A stretch of DNA of 39,466 nucleotides from Nanobdellota archaeon (lineage in GTDB: Archaea; Nanobdellota; Nanobdellia; Woesearchaeales; GW2011-AR9). Positions within the stretch are counted from its first letter, which is position 1, and the number at the start of each line of letters is the position of its first letter. The stretch is from the NCBI GenBank assembly GCA_018824365.1, contig JAHJGQ010000100.1:1-39466 (forward strand), written 5' to 3'. Of the stretch, positions 54 through 36,717 are shown one piece after another. A program made the position numbers and the translations under genes. Under the pieces are notes generated by a model that was not told where the DNA came from, searched no databases, and worked only from the letters and a program-made list of their open reading frames with translations.

Positions 54-1316
54 CTAAAAAATAATAACCTCCTTTATTTTCTTTACTCTTTCTTTAACAT
101 AATCGTCTCTTATCAAGTTCTTCATGAAATCTTCCAATTTAGGGTTTTTATTCTTTATCTTGGCATAGATCTTACCATTTTCTTGGAAAGCATCTTTATT
201 CTTTTTCTTAAAATCTTTAACGAACTCTTTCATCTTTAGAGGCGGACCTGCCCTTAGCTCAAACTTAGGCAGCTCTTTTTTCGCTAATAAAAAAAACATG
301 ATCGCTTCATTTTCTTCTTTGTTCTCTTTCCATCTCCATCCAGATCTTTTGATATCAAATTGCGTGAGTTTCCTTTCCAGATGATTGAAGACTTTTAACA
401 ATTTACTTCCTACAACATCCTCCTTGCCTTTTAGGGCATCTAACTGTAAAAAGACAATGTTCTGTTTTTTTTGCTCTGCTTCTCTATTTAATTTATCTAA
501 ATTGATAATCTCTTTTTGAAATAAATTTTTGCTGGGTTTCTTCAAGTATTCCTTAGCAAGTTTCCTGAACAGTAAGTATTTTTCATTTGAAAGGGCGGCA
601 GCGGCGTTCCTGTTTTTGTCAACCGGATCTACAATAATTATCGGTGATTGAAGTTTTGAATTATTGATATGAAATAAAGCGGTCTTTTTTGTATAAAATT
701 TAGACGGATCAACTATTTCTTTATTACCCCATTTTTGTGATGCTTTCAAAAGAGCTTCAAAAGAACCATAATTGATGGTTAGTATCTCTAATACATAACC
801 GCTGAAACCGCTGATGTATGATTCTGCTCCATAAAGATTGTTGGCTTTACAGAATTGTTTAATCAGTCTGATCTCATTTTTTATCTTTTTATCATGTTTA
901 TTGACCCATCTAGAATGAAGAGGAGAGATGTCGGTGATATTGATGGCTTGTTCAGCTTTGTTAATCTTTAAAATGGGAACAATTTCCAAATTAAAGTTCT
1001 GATAAGTTGTTTTGAAATAGTCTCTGCTTCCATGAACTTTCTCTATCTTGATTTTAGGAAAAACTTTCTTTAATATTGGTTCAAGAATTTCTGATAATTG
1101 ATCGGATTTAGCTGAATATCTCTTATAATCGAATAAGACAAAAATATCAATGTCGTGATCCCCCGATAGCCATGTGCCTTTAGCACCACTGCCACCCAAA
1201 ATAGCTTCTGCATATTTAAGCTTGGAGTTCAATTTTTTGATGAATAATGAAGTGATTGATTTTACTTTGTCTGATTCTTTTTTACTCGGTTTTATTATTT
1301 CTAATATGTCTTTCAT
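54..1316 (-). CDS. cca: CCA-adding enzyme (archaeal class I tRNA nucleotidyltransferase)
   Basis: 420-aa ORF. The N-terminal GGSGAKGTWLSGDHDIDIFV matches the class I nucleotidyltransferase G-S/D-x-D signature. Length and layout are typical of archaeal Cca. Confidence 0.85.
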   Translation of the reverse strand: MKDILEIIKPSKKESDKVKSITSLFIKKLNSKLKYAEAILGGSGAKGTWLSGDHDIDIFVLFDYKRYSAKSDQLSEILEPILKKVFPKIKIEKVHGSRDYFKTTYQNFNLEIVPILKINKAEQAINITDISPLHSRWVNKHDKKIKNEIRLIKQFCKANNLYGAESYISGFSGYVLEILTINYGSFEALLKASQKWGNKEIVDPSKFYTKKTALFHINNSKLQSPIIIVDPVDKNRNAAAALSNEKYLLFRKLAKEYLKKPSKNLFQKEIINLDKLNREAEQKKQNIVFLQLDALKGKEDVVGSKLLKVFNHLERKLTQFDIKRSGWRWKENKEENEAIMFFLLAKKELPKFELRAGPPLKMKEFVKDFKKKNKDAFQENGKIYAKIKNKNPKLEDFMKNLIRDDYVKERVKKIKEVIIF

Positions 1317-10301: not shown

Positions 10302-11384
10302 TTACAAAGTCAGATAATTAGCTGCCCATAACATCCCAGAATCGCAATAATAAAAAGGTGTGCTGAAAGGTTTACCTGCTGCTGAGAAGACTTCTAAAAA
10401 GTTTTTATGTTTCTCAATCAGTTCTTTATATTTCTCTTTATATTTTCTGGATCTATTTTCATCAACTTGCTGTAATAACTTTACATATAATGGACCCATG
10501 TGCATCCAGATAGCATTGCTTTCATAATCTCTAAAAAATAATTCCTGCCAGATGAAATTTATGTTTTCTCTTGAATTAGAGTATTTTAATGGAAAAGGTT
10601 CGTCCAGTTCAGCTTCATGCAGATGAGCAATTGCTGAATGAAGCATTTTTTTATCTTCAACAACACCAAAGATGAAAGGAAAAAAGTTTGCATCTCCTGT
10701 AATGTAATCTTTTTTTGTTAAGTCATCGTAAAAGTAAGCACCATTCCAAAAATGACGTTTGATGATGTCTGGATAATTAAATCCTTTGAAAGGATTGATT
10801 AGTTTCATCTCTTCAAGATCTTTAGCAAGCAAGGCAACCATGCAGTTATCATAACAAGAACTTTTTCTGACAGCAAAATCTTTCATCGAAGAAACGTGTA
10901 AATCTGGTTTGACTAAACCTGTATGTTCGTTAATGAATGTCTTAAAGAATTTTTTAGTTTCCTGATTAAGAAAATTTTTATGTGAATGATGAGGAAATTT
11001 TGATATTTTGATGCTATGGATTAACCAAGGCAGAGAATCAACAGCAGGCAAAGGAAAATCAAAAGGCTTACCTTTGGGAGTAATAGTTGTAGTTATCTTT
11101 TTATATTCCTTAAAACGATTTATTGCATACCTTAAAGTTTGATGTACTTCTTTCTCGTACTTAAGTGTCAGGAGAGATTTAGTACACCATCCAAAATCTC
11201 TTGTCCAAAATTGAGGAAAGTTTGTTGTAGACGTTTGAAAGAATCTATCATTCCAGCAGTCTTTAACTATTTGTTTGCAGATGGTTTCTGCATTGCCTTC
11301 GTATTTTTTCGGTGAGATGCGGTTTTTCCAGCTGGTTAGAAAGATGCGGGTTCCTTGTGTCAGATAATCAAGAATTGAGACCAT
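10302..11384 (-). CDS. Hypothetical protein, possibly an (alpha/alpha)6-barrel glycoside-hydrolase-like enzyme
   Basis: 360-aa ORF. FWTRDFGW resembles debranching-enzyme and trehalase-type motifs. The product call is weak. Confidence 0.45.
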   Translation of the reverse strand: MVSILDYLTQGTRIFLTSWKNRISPKKYEGNAETICKQIVKDCWNDRFFQTSTTNFPQFWTRDFGWCTKSLLTLKYEKEVHQTLRYAINRFKEYKKITTTITPKGKPFDFPLPAVDSLPWLIHSIKISKFPHHSHKNFLNQETKKFFKTFINEHTGLVKPDLHVSSMKDFAVRKSSCYDNCMVALLAKDLEEMKLINPFKGFNYPDIIKRHFWNGAYFYDDLTKKDYITGDANFFPFIFGVVEDKKMLHSAIAHLHEAELDEPFPLKYSNSRENINFIWQELFFRDYESNAIWMHMGPLYVKLLQQVDENRSRKYKEKYKELIEKHKNFLEVFSAAGKPFSTPFYYCDSGMLWAANYLTL

Positions 11385-11571
11385 AAATGTATGATGTAAG
11401 AGGTAATATAAAAATTTGTTGGAAAACGAATGTAATTGTGTTTAATATTTTAAAAAAAATATGAATCTCCCAAGATTACTCATCCTCAGCCTACTTCGAT
11501 CATTCCATTAAGGAATATTCAAGAGTTCTTCATCGGATCTTGAGACTTGGGAAGGAACGGACCCGGGGAGA

Positions 11572-11648
11572 CTTCCAAGGAATTGGTTACGAATAGCTAG
11601 CTATGAGTTACTTAAAACCCATGACTCCAAACCCAAAACCAATTATCT
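11572..11648 (-). other. tRNA-Arg intron 3 (77 nt, T-loop, position 59/60)
   Basis: Central helix UUCA:UGGA stacked on the T stem, bulges AAA and AGU, and an internal 6-bp helix AAUUGG/CCAAUU. The junction is ambiguous by about 1 nt. Confidence 0.6.
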
Positions 11649-11670
11649 TTTGAACTCCCGGTCTTTTGCT

Positions 11671-11687
11671 CTCTTCTCTTTTTAGAG
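11671..11687 (-). other. tRNA-Arg intron 2 (17 nt, canonical position 37/38)
   Basis: RNA sense CUCUAAAAAGAGAAGAG. The anticodon loop CUCC pairs with the intron GAAG, and bulges lie on both sides. Confidence 0.65.
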
Positions 11688-11706
11688 TAGGAGGCAAACG
11701 CCCTAT

Positions 11707-11725
11707 TTGTCTTCCTTTACAGGAA
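11707..11725 (-). other. tRNA-Arg intron 1 (19 nt, D-loop, position 19/20)
   Basis: RNA sense UUCCUGUAAAGGAAGACAA. Bulge-helix-bulge motif: central helix GCCU:AGAC (one C.A mismatch), 3-nt bulges GGU and AAA, and a 4-bp helix with a GUAA loop. Confidence 0.7.
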
Positions 11726-11769
11726 CCAGGCTAGGCTACGGGTCCTTAAAGCTTAAGTTTGATGAATTC

Positions 11770-11778
11770 TTTAATAAG
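11770..11778 (-). promoter_or_regulatory. Candidate TATA box for tRNA-Arg
   Basis: The minus strand reads CTTATTAAA, 25-33 nt upstream of tRNA position 1. Confidence 0.35.
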
Positions 11779-11801
11779 TTTTTTCATAAATTCGTAATTT
11801 T

Positions 11802-11816
11802 GTTAGCTCAACTAAC
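11802..11816. repeat. Palindromic 15-mer GTTAGCTCAACTAAC (copy 1)
   Basis: 5-bp arms GTTAG/CTAAC. An identical copy lies 40 bp away. Confidence 0.8.
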
Positions 11817-11841
11817 AAAGAAATAGCTTTTTCTTTAATTG

Positions 11842-11856
11842 GTTAGCTCAACTAAC
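11842..11856. repeat. Palindromic 15-mer GTTAGCTCAACTAAC (copy 2)
   Basis: Identical to 11802-11816, including the following A. Confidence 0.8.
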
Positions 11857-11956
11857 AGAAACTTCAAATAGTAATTATCATAACAAAATTCTGTTAAATC
11901 CAATTAAACAATTTTTTTTTCTAAAAAAAGAGGATTGAAAGGATAAGGAACCACCC

Positions 11957-12409
11957 TCACCCCTCATGAATCACAATCATAGACTGTGTTTTATCAATCC
12001 CCTCAACCAACTGTAGTTTTCCCAACAATACTTTATCAAACCGTTGAGCATCAGCAACTCTTAGAAAAGCGACCAAATCTGTGCCGCCAGAAACGATATC
12101 TACTTTTTCAATAAAATCAAAACTTTTGATCTCTTTAGCTAAATCATATTGGGTTTTCTTCTTTTGTTTAAGCAATGGTAAATTAGCTGAGAATAAAATA
12201 TATGCTGCGAAACCTTTGCCGATCTTTGAATTATCCAGTTCGACAGTAAATTTTTTGATAATTTTCTCTTTCTTAAGTCTTTTAATCCGGTTATGTATTG
12301 TTGTGATGGGTAATAATGTCTTCTTGGCAATCTGTCTAGTAGTGTAATCACCATGTTCTTTCAACACTTCTAATATTTTTTGGTCTTTATCATCCAAAAT
12401 ATAATCCAT
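11957..12409 (-). CDS. Lrp/AsnC family transcriptional regulator
   Basis: 150-aa ORF with an N-terminal HTH (DDKDQKILEVLKEHGDYTTRQIAKKTLLPITTIHNRIKRL) and a RAM-type C-terminal domain. Divergent from asnA. Confidence 0.85.
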   Translation of the reverse strand: MDYILDDKDQKILEVLKEHGDYTTRQIAKKTLLPITTIHNRIKRLKKEKIIKKFTVELDNSKIGKGFAAYILFSANLPLLKQKKKTQYDLAKEIKSFDFIEKVDIVSGGTDLVAFLRVADAQRFDKVLLGKLQLVEGIDKTQSMIVIHEG

Positions 12410-16988: not shown

Positions 16989-17990
16989 ATGTACATCCTT
17001 AAACAACTTCCTGAAGATTTTATCGTAAAAGAAATAAGTAATGTAGAAATAAAAGATAAAGGTAAATATTTCTATTACAAATTAAAGAAAACTAATCGTA
17101 ATACTTTAGATGTTGTTAAAGAAATCGCTAAACAATTGAATGTTAAAGAAAAACAAGTAGGTTTTGCCGGCAGCAAGGACAAGCATGCAGTTACAGAACA
17201 ATTGATATCGGCACCAAAAAAGCTAGATAAGATAAATATTGATAAAGTCTCTTTAGAATTTCTTGGTTATGGAAATAAACCTATTTCTTTAGGTGATCTG
17301 GAAGAGAATGAATTTGAGATCGTTGTCAGACATTTAGAAAATTTTTCTATTGACAAAATTAATCTTGTAGAAAATTATTTTGATGAACAGAGGTTTTCTC
17401 TTCATAATGTTGATATCGGCAGGCATCTGATAAAAAAAGAGTTTGAAGATGCAGTAAAACTTATTGATGACAGCAGAGCAAATGAACATCTGAAGAAACG
17501 TAAGAATGATTTTATCGGTGCCTTAAAGAATCTGCCGATAAGATTGCTAAGGATGTACGTAAACGCTTACCAAAGTTATCTTTGGAATGAAACTTTGGCA
17601 GGTCACTTAAGAAAGAAGGGAAAGGTTCTCAAAGAAGTTGAATACTCATTAGGAAAAATAGTTTTTGTTTCTGATGCAGAAAAATTTGTAGATTTAGAAA
17701 TTCCTTTGATAGGTTTTGGTTGTGAAAGTTTGGATAATTTTAAAGATATAATAAAGAAAATTATGGAAAAAGAAAATCTTGATTATCCCGATTTTGTCAT
17801 TAAACAGATTCCAGAACTTTCTTTAGAAGGAGATTTAAGAAAGGCATTTGTAAAAATAAATAATCTGAAAATCAGTAAAGAAACAAATGATGATTTCAAT
17901 AAAGATAAAAAGAAACTTACAGTTAAATTTTCTTTAGGGAAAGGAAGTTATGCTACCATGGTTGTAAGAAGGATGATATCTTTAGAATAA
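16989..17990 (+). CDS. truD: tRNA pseudouridine(13) synthase TruD
   Basis: Catalytic motif GFAGSKDKHAVTEQ and typical archaeal TruD length. Confidence 0.85.
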   Translation: MYILKQLPEDFIVKEISNVEIKDKGKYFYYKLKKTNRNTLDVVKEIAKQLNVKEKQVGFAGSKDKHAVTEQLISAPKKLDKINIDKVSLEFLGYGNKPISLGDLEENEFEIVVRHLENFSIDKINLVENYFDEQRFSLHNVDIGRHLIKKEFEDAVKLIDDSRANEHLKKRKNDFIGALKNLPIRLLRMYVNAYQSYLWNETLAGHLRKKGKVLKEVEYSLGKIVFVSDAEKFVDLEIPLIGFGCESLDNFKDIIKKIMEKENLDYPDFVIKQIPELSLEGDLRKAFVKINNLKISKETNDDFNKDKKKLTVKFSLGKGSYATMVVRRMISLE

Positions 17991-18156: not shown

Positions 18157-19311
18157 ATGACTGAAAAAAATTCTCATTCCAATAAAGATGAAAATTGGCT
18201 TGAAGAAAGAAAAAAACTCTTAGAATCTCTTCAGAAATTTCAGGAAGTAGCTTTCAAACAGTATCAGCATATCAATTATCTGCAACAAATCGTTGATGAA
18301 CAAAAAGCTTTATTGGAAAAATATGAACAAGGTGTTGAAGATCTTGTTGAGAACGATTTAAATCTTGAAGTAGAAGATGTAACTTTTTCTGATATTGGCG
18401 GTTTAGGTGATGTAATCCAAAAAATTCAGCATTTTCAGTATGGGATTCTCTTTCCGCAAATGTATAAATCTTTTGCTATCAAGCCGCCTAAAGGCTTGTT
18501 GATGCATGGTCCTCCAGGTTGTGGCAAAACGATGATTGCCAAAGCCATGGCTAACGAGATTGATTCATTCTTCATGGAAATACCCATGACTAAGATCATC
18601 AGCAAATATGTTGGAGAAGCAGAAAGGACTCTTGACGAATTGTTGTTACATGCACGGAACACTCACAATGAGTATGGAAAGAAAGTGATCGTTTTCGTTG
18701 ACGAAGCCGAACAGATGTTCAGGAAAAGAGGTTCATATGACCATGGTGTTAATGATAGAATAGTTAATGTCTGGTTAAGGACCATGGACGGCATGTCCGA
18801 ATCAGATGGTTTAATCTTTGTTGCCGCTACAAATCATCTTGAGATGATGGATGATGCAATAACCAGAGCAGGAAGGTTTGATTATGTTGTTGAAATTCCT
18901 AAGCCGGATAAAAAAGGCATAGAAGATATTTTAAGAAAACAAGTTGCATATACAGAAAAGAAAGCTAATCGTACTATCTATCAGATTGATGATTATGGAC
19001 GTCTGGCAGAAATGCTTTATCAGAGAAAAGTCACTGGTGCGGACATTAAAGAAGTTCTTCGTATTACTTCTGAAAGGTTGATCGCTGAATTTATTGAGAG
19101 TGACGATTCGCTTGTTGTTGGTCTTCCTGCAACTTATATTTATCAGAGCCAATTGGAAAAGACCCTTTACTCTTATGGAAAAATAAAACATGAGAAGAAA
19201 ATTGGTTTTAATGTTAAATCTGATGAGGATGATTCTGGCAATTTTGAAGATTTTGTTGATCGCAGTTATCTTGAAAGACAAAAAAGAAAAAATCATCATG
19301 GGGATGGATAG
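18157..19311 (+). CDS. Classical-clade AAA+ ATPase with a coiled-coil N-terminus
   Basis: Walker A GPPGCGKT, Walker B VFVDEAE and SRH AATNHLEMMDDAITRAGRFD. About 70 aa of heptad-rich N-terminus, with no OB domain and no HbYX tail. Confidence 0.85.
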   Translation: MTEKNSHSNKDENWLEERKKLLESLQKFQEVAFKQYQHINYLQQIVDEQKALLEKYEQGVEDLVENDLNLEVEDVTFSDIGGLGDVIQKIQHFQYGILFPQMYKSFAIKPPKGLLMHGPPGCGKTMIAKAMANEIDSFFMEIPMTKIISKYVGEAERTLDELLLHARNTHNEYGKKVIVFVDEAEQMFRKRGSYDHGVNDRIVNVWLRTMDGMSESDGLIFVAATNHLEMMDDAITRAGRFDYVVEIPKPDKKGIEDILRKQVAYTEKKANRTIYQIDDYGRLAEMLYQRKVTGADIKEVLRITSERLIAEFIESDDSLVVGLPATYIYQSQLEKTLYSYGKIKHEKKIGFNVKSDEDDSGNFEDFVDRSYLERQKRKNHHGDG

Positions 19312-36205: not shown

Positions 36206-36268
36206 ATTATCACCTATTTATTATGGATTGATCAATTGTTTAAAATACTTTGTGGTTTTTCTTAGCTA

Positions 36269-36413
36269 GGCTTTGTAGAAACCCCTGCCAAATAGCGAGT
36301 GAGCACAAGACTATTCGTGAGACAAGCCATGCCCTCTTCTTCGGAAATCACTTCAACTTTGGAGCAATTAGCTAATCAAAAGAGGGTGCGAACGGAAGGG
36401 TTTCTACAGAGCC
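36269..36413 (+). ncRNA. Unassigned structured RNA candidate (16-bp closing stem)
   Basis: GGCTTTGTAGAAACCC (36269-36284) pairs with GGGTTTCTACAGAGCC (36398-36413). The single G.T pair is valid only on the + strand. An inner 7-bp stem CCCTCTT/AAGAGGG is also present. Confidence 0.4.
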
Positions 36414-36528
36414 TCTTAACTATTGAAGTTTTGCGGATTTTCAAGTTTTAAGTATAAAATACTTTGTCTGGTATTCGAAATTTAAGCTTATTTTCCAAAA
36501 AACGCAAAACATCAGTTAACTAGAAAAG

Positions 36529-36537: not shown

Positions 36538-36580
36538 CAAGCCGATTTTTTGTGAATCAGTGCCCCTGTGGCCTAGTGGT

Positions 36581-36599
36581 AAGGTCTACACCTCACTAA
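36581..36599 (+). other. tRNA-Thr intron 1 (19 nt, D-loop, position 20/21)
   Basis: AAGGTCTACACCTCACTAA. Central helix AGTG:CACT, bulges GTA and AAA, helix AGGT/ACCT with loop CTAC, flanked by the D stem. Confidence 0.75.
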
Positions 36600-36607
36600 A
36601 TGGCGTT

Positions 36608-36626
36608 AAGACAAAAGTCTCGCTAA
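36608..36626 (+). other. tRNA-Thr intron 2 (19 nt, anticodon stem, position 28/29)
   Basis: AAGACAAAAGTCTCGCTAA. Central helix GGCG:CGCT, bulges TTA and AAA, helix AGAC/GTCT with loop AAAA. Splicing rebuilds TTACC. Confidence 0.75.
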
Positions 36627-36657
36627 ACCTTGGTAAGGTAAAGGTCCCGAGTTCAAA

Positions 36658-36703
36658 TGCAGTCACTAGCGTTCGGTATTTTCCTTCGCTATGGCTCGGA
36701 AAG
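36658..36703 (+). other. tRNA-Thr intron 3 (46 nt, T-loop, position 59/60)
   Basis: The T stem CCGAG/CTCGG flanks a 3-4-bp central helix (TTC:GAA) and bulges AAT and AGT. The junction is ambiguous by 1 nt. Confidence 0.6.
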
Positions 36704-36717
36704 TCTCGGCAGGGGCT

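Follow-up and report, generated by a model that had tools for sequence, protein, structure and literature searches.

A probable three-intron tRNA-Arg(CCU) gene, overlooked by standard tools, in a Woesearchaeota-type DPANN archaeon

Multiple-intron tRNA genes of archaea were reportedly described by Sugahara and co-workers in 2008. Archaeal tRNA genes interrupted by up to three introns are known mainly from Thermoproteales and Thaumarchaeota (PMC4033280, PMC8450103), in which introns occupy the canonical site between positions 37 and 38 as well as non-canonical sites, are bounded by strict or relaxed bulge-helix-bulge motifs, are removed by the splicing endonuclease EndA and are missed by standard tRNA finders (Fujishima and Kanai, 2014; PMC4033280). 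The intron models of tRNAscan-SE have been trained on crenarchaeal, euryarchaeal and thaumarchaeal introns (PMC8450103). For the DPANN archaea, Kaneta et al. predicted tRNAs in genomes that include one Woesearchaeota and one Pacearchaeota; the authors describe tRNAs with multiple introns from DPANN, connect these with EndAs that bear an additional L3 loop, and take incomplete tRNA sets to imply that disrupted tRNA genes are still to be identified (Kaneta et al., 2018; PMC5829648). Here we describe a GC-rich island on the minus strand of a 39,466-nt stretch of contig JAHJGQ010000100.1 (assembly GCA_018824365.1, Nanobdellota archaeon), which we refer to in its whole length as the window. This island is very probably a genuine and functional tRNA-Arg(CCU) gene of a Woesearchaeota-type DPANN archaeon that carries three introns, located between positions 19 and 20, 37 and 38, and 59 and 60 of the tRNA.

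The predicted gene resembles those of Thermoproteales and Thaumarchaeota in having three introns, in combining the 37/38 site with non-canonical ones, in its bulge-helix-bulge motifs, which would likewise be recognized by EndA, and in being passed over by standard tools (Fujishima and Kanai, 2014; PMC4033280). Unlike those cases, its host is an AT-rich DPANN archaeon rather than a TACK member, and many DPANN species share the three positions, with turnover of the intron sequences. The epsilon2 EndA of ARMAN-2 represents a related DPANN system (PMC3488258). A similar distribution of introns over the D arm, anticodon loop and T arm is found in the tRNA-Ile(UAU) of the red alga Cyanidioschyzon merolae (PMC9602550, PMC3728597), but this is a eukaryotic nuclear gene served by a different enzyme complex, and the likeness is an analogy only. 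In the accessible portion of its main text, the DPANN survey contains no gene-level tRNA-Arg(CCU) with introns at 19/20, 37/38 and 59/60 (PMC5829648). The gene described here is a case of the disrupted DPANN tRNAs that the survey anticipates, and its mechanism is not new.

The precursor corresponds to 188 nt of the minus strand, from 11745 down to 11558, with GGACCCGTAGCCTAGCCTGG as its first and TCTCCCCGGGTCCG as its last bases. It forms an island of 44-47% GC between flanks of 22-28% GC (32.8% for the whole window), within a 572-nt gap that separates an Lrp/AsnC-type gene from a conserved gene for a 360-aa protein without a Pfam match. Excision of the three introns of 19, 17 and 77 nt (Table 1) yields the 75-mer GGACCCGTAGCCTAGCCTGGATAGGGCGTTTGCCTCCTAAGCAAAAGACCGGGAGTTCAAATCTCCCCGGGTCCG, in which ARAGORN recognizes tRNA-Arg(cct) over its full length, from 1 to 75, with fully paired stems. 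None of the 21 cloverleaf pairs is broken, and U8, A14, G18, G19, U33, the U54 U55 C56 triplet and A58 are present. The anticodon arm consists of the 5-bp stem UUUGC/GCAAA and the 7-nt loop CUCCUAA, including U33, the anticodon C34 C35 U36 and a purine at 37, and this loop can be aligned column for column with at least 71 archaeal tRNA-Arg(CCU) genes called by ARAGORN. The T arm reads GGGAG-UUCAAAU-CUCCC, and G15, C48, A20 and the discriminator G73 are all found. Within the DPANN set A20, C35 and G73 are invariant, with the proviso that the A20/C35 rule comes from bacterial arginyl-tRNA synthetase systems and may not be that of the host. CCA is not encoded at the 3' end. The four exons are colinear on one strand within 188 nt, which rules out a split or permuted tRNA gene. 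An initial annotation of this DNA, made from the letters alone, had proposed a minus-strand tRNA-Arg(CCU) with three introns in a GC-richer island of about 190 nt, the same three excised blocks leading to a 75-nt cloverleaf, and the anticodon stem and loop, T arm, G15, C48, A20 and discriminator G given above; each of these proposals was borne out, and the junctions agree to the base with those of the blind alignment reported below.

Table 1. Positions of the parts of the tRNA-Arg(CCU) locus and of further features in the window
Feature	Position	Strand	Basis or remark
A-rich stretch GAAAAAAC, possible B recognition element (BRE; putative function)	11778-11785	-	Directly upstream of the TATA-like box; orthologues A-rich there too
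TATA-like box A TTATTAAA	11770-11777	-	-32 to -25 from the mature 5' end
Exon 1: acceptor 5' strand, positions 8-9, D stem 5' strand, D loop to G19	11726-11745	-	Spliced model and alignment
Intron 1, 19 nt, D loop, G19/A20	11707-11725	-	Spliced model, alignment, motif; register in 14 orthologues
Exon 2: A20-A37, D stem 3' strand, anticodon stem 5' strand, anticodon CCU	11688-11706	-	Spliced model and alignment
Intron 2, 17 nt, canonical 37/38 site	11671-11687	-	Spliced model, alignment, motif, orthologue register
Exon 3: A38-A59, anticodon stem 3' strand, variable loop AGACC, T stem 5' strand, T loop UUCAAA	11649-11670	-	
Intron 3, 77 nt, T loop, A59/U60	11572-11648	-	Spliced model, alignment, motif, folding, 14 orthologues
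Exon 4: U60, T stem 3' strand, acceptor 3' strand, discriminator G73	11558-11571	-	Sequence and spliced model
C/D-box-like small RNA candidate (putative function)	11479-11544	-	14 nt downstream of the tRNA
T8 run, likely terminator	11452-11459	-	First oligo-T after the tRNA and the small RNA
360-aa protein gene	10302-11384	-	Conserved, without Pfam match
Lrp/AsnC-type gene	11957-12409	-	
27-nt direct repeat, copy 1	11791-11817		
27-nt direct repeat, copy 2	11831-11857		
Class I (archaeal) CCA-adding enzyme gene	54-1316	-	
TruD/Pus7-type tRNA pseudouridine synthase gene	16989-17990	+	
Structured element, about 165 nt	36262-36424	+	Closing stem of about 20 bp
tRNA-Thr(GGU)	36562-36717	+	Three introns
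tRNA-Thr intron, D stem, 24/25	36585-36603	+	
tRNA-Thr intron, anticodon stem, about 29/30	36609-36627	+	
tRNA-Thr intron, T loop, 59/60	36658-36703	+	

Standard tools do not see this gene. ARAGORN called 0 tRNA genes in the whole window and, run with its intron options, returned nothing for the unspliced tRNA-Arg locus, and Rfam at its gathering threshold gave no matches across the window. At E<=10 on 11450-11850, Rfam produced no tRNA match, only chance-level matches and a weak one to sR10. The intron-less Woesearchaeota orthologue L060, used as a control (locus numbers have the prefix L), reaches 68.1 bits with the Rfam tRNA model, whose threshold is 29, and the miss in the window is therefore attributed to the introns. 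A position profile was made from 56 intron-less archaeal tRNA-Arg(CCU) genes and used in a spliced aligner that charges a fixed 6 bits per intron whatever its length and works on sequence only, with no structural information. Applied blindly, this aligner placed introns of 19, 17 and 77 nt after G19, A37 and A59 with a score of 76.8 bits. The null consisted of 392 overlapping tiles that cover both strands of the window, with a median of -8.9 bits, and the runner-up tile, at 27.4 bits, is the window's other hidden tRNA, a tRNA-Thr(GGU) gene to which we return below. The folding z-score of the 188-nt strand is -3.7.

Relatives of the gene were sought through the pattern of exon 2, ATAGGGCGNNNGCCTCCTA, which was scanned in one genome per species and retrieved at least 120 loci. 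At least 71 of these are intron-less tRNA-Arg(CCU) genes that run without a break over the three proposed junctions (...CTGGATAGGGCG..., ...CCTCCTAAGC... and ...GTTCRAATC...). Synteny gave L006, in which a 73%-identical copy of the 360-aa gene is preceded by a tRNA-Arg(CCU) whose introns, of 42, 35 and 45 nt, occupy the three sites used in the window, none of them related in sequence to those of the window. The stems of L006 differ by compensatory changes, with A3:U70 replaced by G:C, UUUGC/GCAAA by ACAGC/GCUGU, and GGGAG/CUCCC by GUGAG/CUCAU. Among the matches listed, the layout of 19/20, 37/38 and 59/60 also occurs in L013, L014, L029, L030, L033 and L046, and intron lengths of the orthologues range from 13 to 146 nt; the same layout was read by eye in L132, which came from a metagenome scan. 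Variants of this layout include genes whose third intron lies at 56/57 instead of 59/60 (L035 and L116), others with two introns (for example L021, L027, L061, L070, L097, L112 and L120), one with a T-loop intron alone (L117), and two without any (L060 and L103, labelled Woesearchaeota and Nanoarchaeota). When synteny was followed through homologues of the 360-aa gene, the tRNA was present for P0003 and was not at the syntenic spot for P0048 and P0074.

Beyond the DPANN genes, tRNA-Arg(CCU) has a T-loop intron at 56/57 in L118 and L067 (labelled Thermoplasmata/Thermoplasmatota) and a D-loop intron at 19/20, the site used in DPANN, in L082, a metagenome-assembled genome (MAG) of Thorarchaeota. 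Several multi-intron loci are titled 'uncultured Methanosarcinales', possibly a mislabel, and no conclusion was drawn from these titles.

Covariation in the cloverleaf was tested with 21 spliced or intron-less DPANN sequences. Cloverleaf cells are paired in 99.8% of cases, against at most 54% in slid registers, and 10 of the 21 pairs show changes on both sides. The covariation score of 0.392 compares with 0.157 in shuffles and was reached by none of 500 of them.

The splice motifs were examined under a fixed definition of the register. The central helix joins a block of four exon bases to a block of four intron bases, each block ending 2 nt upstream of a splice site, the 5' one for the exon and the 3' one for the intron. 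Both splice sites then lie in 3-nt bulges, and the motif is flanked by an outer helix between exons and an inner helix within the intron. Applied to canonical 37/38 introns that the data set contains from unrelated archaea, this definition gives four of four central pairs (CUCC/GGAG). In the window, the central helix of intron 1 is GCCU/AGAC with three of four pairs, its outer helix is a register-shifted D stem of 4 bp, and its inner helix has 4 bp with a GUAA cap. Intron 2 has the central helix CUCC/GAAG, again three of four, between the 5-bp anticodon stem and an inner helix of 3 bp with an AAAA loop. For intron 3, the central UUCA/UGGA is complete (four of four, one of them U.G), the outer helix is the 5-bp T stem, and the inner one consists of 1 bp followed by a 3x3 internal loop, an 8-bp helix and a long hairpin. 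By eye, the 77-nt intron 3 holds no C/D boxes (neither UGAUGA nor CUGA).

Exact junctions are available for 14 D-loop, 17 anticodon-loop and 14 T-loop introns of the comparative set. Outer, central and inner helices are paired at 96%, 88% and 93% in the D-loop class, at 100%, 74% and 71% in the anticodon-loop class, and at 100%, 96% and 62% in the T-loop class, whereas central-helix pairing ranges between 18% and 64% when the register is slid by 1-3 nt. Exon and intron also covary across the T-loop motif, where A57 is matched by U in five sequences and G57 by C in seven and by U in two, and intron-exon covariation is likewise observed at positions of the D-loop motif. The bulge-helix-bulge register is thus specific to the proposed junctions. 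The initial annotation had already drawn such a motif around each insert, with one C.A mismatch in the central helix of two of them, and both points hold, the mismatches being those of introns 1 and 2. Unconstrained folding returned the exact bulge-helix-bulge conformer for none of the three introns, and therefore we relied on these comparative register tests; the minimum-energy fold retains the acceptor, anticodon and T stems together with the intron hairpins.

Several points weigh against the reading of the island as a functional tRNA-Arg(CCU) gene with three introns. The related loci were retrieved via exon 2, and the invariance of this exon is therefore a matter of construction and no evidence; the rest of the comparison does count as such. 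There is one C.A mismatch in the central helix of both intron 1 and intron 2, and intron 3 has a weak inner helix. Nearest-neighbour energies at 37 C put the exact conformers 5.1, 9.5 and 2.5 kcal/mol over the minimum-energy fold. Finally, a search of the window and of 10 kb to each side of it brought up neither an EndA nor an RtcB gene. Because the exact conformers lie above the minimum-energy fold, the three motifs are relaxed bulge-helix-bulges that require a tolerant endonuclease. The mismatches and the distance from the minimum-energy fold, together with the failure of standard tools to call the locus, would also suit a decaying tRNA pseudogene, its task being taken over by an intact tRNA-Arg(CCU), or by tRNA-Arg(UCU) through wobble, elsewhere in the genome. 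We consider such decay very unlikely, given that every cloverleaf pair and all checked conserved tRNA nucleotides are intact and that the promoter box is conserved, while the C34.A mismatch of intron 2 recurs in 8 of the 17 orthologues and is hence tolerated. Also, the interrupted layout persists in many species with compensation in the exons and exon-intron covariation at the splice motifs, which argues for purifying selection.

The island might alternatively be a structured non-coding RNA (ncRNA) of about 190 nt, or a chance GC-rich stretch, whose likeness to a tRNA is a coincidence. This was the impression from which the initial annotation set out, and the stable folding of the 188-nt strand agrees with it, but the spliced-alignment score stands far apart from anything else in the window, and the exon set recurs in other genomes around inserts that are unrelated and of widely differing length, whereas a long ncRNA would conserve its inserts as well. 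We regard this explanation as effectively refuted. A subtler possibility is that the tRNA-Arg(CCU) is real while at least one insert, most probably that of the T loop, leaves the precursor by a pathway, or at junctions, other than those of the bulge-helix-bulge. In its favour, the inner helix of intron 3 has a single base pair before the internal loop, the minimum-energy fold pairs UUC/GAA one register off the bulge-helix-bulge, and the search in and around the window brought up no endonuclease gene. Against it, none of the three placements can be shifted to a sequence-equivalent alternative, and the high central pairing of the T-loop class is confined to the proposed register, in which R57 covaries with its pyrimidine partner and the 3' bulge recurs as AG/U, cut after the G. 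Relaxed motifs are, moreover, what EndAs of broad specificity are known to cut, and the additional loop of DPANN EndAs is linked to disrupted tRNA genes (PMC5829648). Another route of removal is accordingly highly improbable in our view, and splicing of all three introns at bulge-helix-bulge motifs is the account that we retain for the tRNA-Arg(CCU) gene.

Expression of the gene would start from the TATA-like box listed in Table 1, which matches the A/T box that the initial annotation had placed upstream at the same distance as for the tRNA-Thr. A box of the YTTTWTAAA type is found in nearly all of 19 orthologues, where it ends 22-25 nt before the mature 5' end. The tRNA-Thr of the window likewise has such a box, equally far upstream. 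These positions match those of Nanoarchaeum, where about 26 nt separate box A from the start of tRNA transcription (PMC3491384). Two copies of a 27-nt direct repeat, 85% identical and 40 nt apart, are situated between the stop of the Lrp/AsnC-type gene and this promoter. Both contain the palindrome GTTAGTTGAGCTAAC and may either bind a regulator or act as small terminator hairpins.

On the model of the established archaeal splicing pathway (PMC4090602, PMC4033280), transcription would begin about 25 nt downstream of the TATA-like box and may run on through the C/D-box-like small RNA to the T8 run. In the precursor, each intron would pair over 4 bp with adjacent exon bases so that two 3-nt bulges hold the splice sites. 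EndA would be able to cut the three motifs in any order, since they do not overlap, an RtcB-type ligase would join the exons, and the ends would then be trimmed. CCA would presumably be added by the class I (archaeal) CCA-adding enzyme for which the window has a gene, and the presence of this enzyme fits tRNA genes that lack an encoded CCA. The mature tRNA-Arg(CCU) is predicted to read AGG codons and to be used in translation; AGG accounts for 102 of the 428 Arg codons in the open reading frames of the window. Further genes of the window encode a tRNA pseudouridine synthase of the TruD/Pus7 type, FtsZ and Spt5/NusG. The 360-aa protein recurs in identical form on contig JBDRBV010000055.1 (MAG GCA_043822325.1) and has many homologues of 64-74% identity, the named ones of which are labelled Woesearchaeota or Nanoarchaeota.

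The tRNA is followed by a candidate small RNA of C/D-box type, with no T run between the 3' end of the tRNA and the candidate, as read from the DNA. Its C box is AUGAAGA (six of seven positions of RUGAUGA) and its D box CUGA; CUCA/AUCC pairs with GGAUGAG in a terminal stem of 7 bp, an internal hairpin is present, and there are no clear C'/D' boxes. The Rfam match to sR10 mentioned above is weak (11.4 bits, E=2). The same tandem of tRNA-Arg(CCU) and small RNA is found in L033, L132 and L133, the first of which we note as sharing it with the window. Across these four genomes, the 11 nt 5' of the D box (AUCGAAGUAGG) are identical; variation is found in the other guide region, and a compensatory change in the internal hairpin. 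A search with the guides in the DNA of the window and the fetched loci gave self-matches only. The small RNA is possibly on the same transcript as the tRNA. A precedent is offered by the dicistronic precursors of tRNA and C/D sRNA (small RNA) in N. equitans (PMC3491384), in which, as with the candidate described here, a C/D-box-type small RNA stands directly 3' of the tRNA with no promoter or terminator in between, and the tRNA promoter has its box A about 26 nt upstream. Given such a tandem, 3' processing of the tRNA would release the small RNA. The two systems differ in that the small RNA of the window is a candidate and its tRNA partner has three introns.

The second hidden tRNA of the window, the tRNA-Thr(GGU), also has three introns (Table 1), and neither it nor the tRNA-Arg(CCU) was called when ARAGORN and Rfam were run on the window. 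Its spliced 72-mer is accepted by ARAGORN, a TTTTTAAAA box ends 24 nt upstream of it, and its 3' end is followed by a T7 run. An apparent tRNA-Arg(GCG), another missed tRNA, lies on the same contig about 7 kb beyond the start of the window (L134, about 18233-18385, minus strand). It was read by eye following a 33-bit match to the Arg profile, and it has a 47-nt D-loop intron at the G19/A20 junction (CCTGG before and ATAGG after the intron) and a 37/38 intron, with none in the T loop.

Just upstream of the tRNA-Thr promoter there is a structured element with look-alikes upstream of the tRNA-Arg in L006 (2058-2188) and, in L010 (2271-2445), at the equivalent spot without a tRNA. The common ends of all three are TTAGYT... 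and ...CTTAACTA. The L010 copy has terminal inverted repeats ACGTATTTAGTT/AACTAAATACGT, the direct repeat TCGGAAGACT at both flanks and a folding z-score of -5.3, and it looks like a mobile element of the miniature inverted-repeat transposable element (MITE) type with a target-site duplication. Rfam found nothing meaningful in the element of the window or in its L010 look-alike.

What is known of how archaeal tRNA introns work is unchanged by the tRNA-Arg(CCU) gene, which lends itself instead to clean studies of how introns at fixed positions are gained, lost and turned over. Since ARAGORN and Rfam miss both three-intron tRNAs within a 39-kb window, tRNA inventories of DPANN archaea that are based on such tools can be wrong, and so can the inferences on missing tRNAs, codon reassignment and host dependence that are drawn from them. 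The comparative intron set assembled here could be used as DPANN-specific training data for intron models. It can also be speculated that the trio of 19/20, 37/38 and 59/60 introns is an old architecture of Woesearchaeota-type DPANN archaea that has been selectively retained and is not neutral clutter. This reading is suggested by the persistence of the positions across many species while the intron sequences are replaced, by the use of the same D-loop site in the tRNA-Arg(GCG) and of the same T-loop site in the tRNA-Thr, and by the repeated coupling of tRNA-Arg(CCU) to a downstream C/D-box-like small RNA, though we hold it to be rather unlikely. If it is true, the introns or their splicing would serve ordered modification, quality control or protection against integrating elements.

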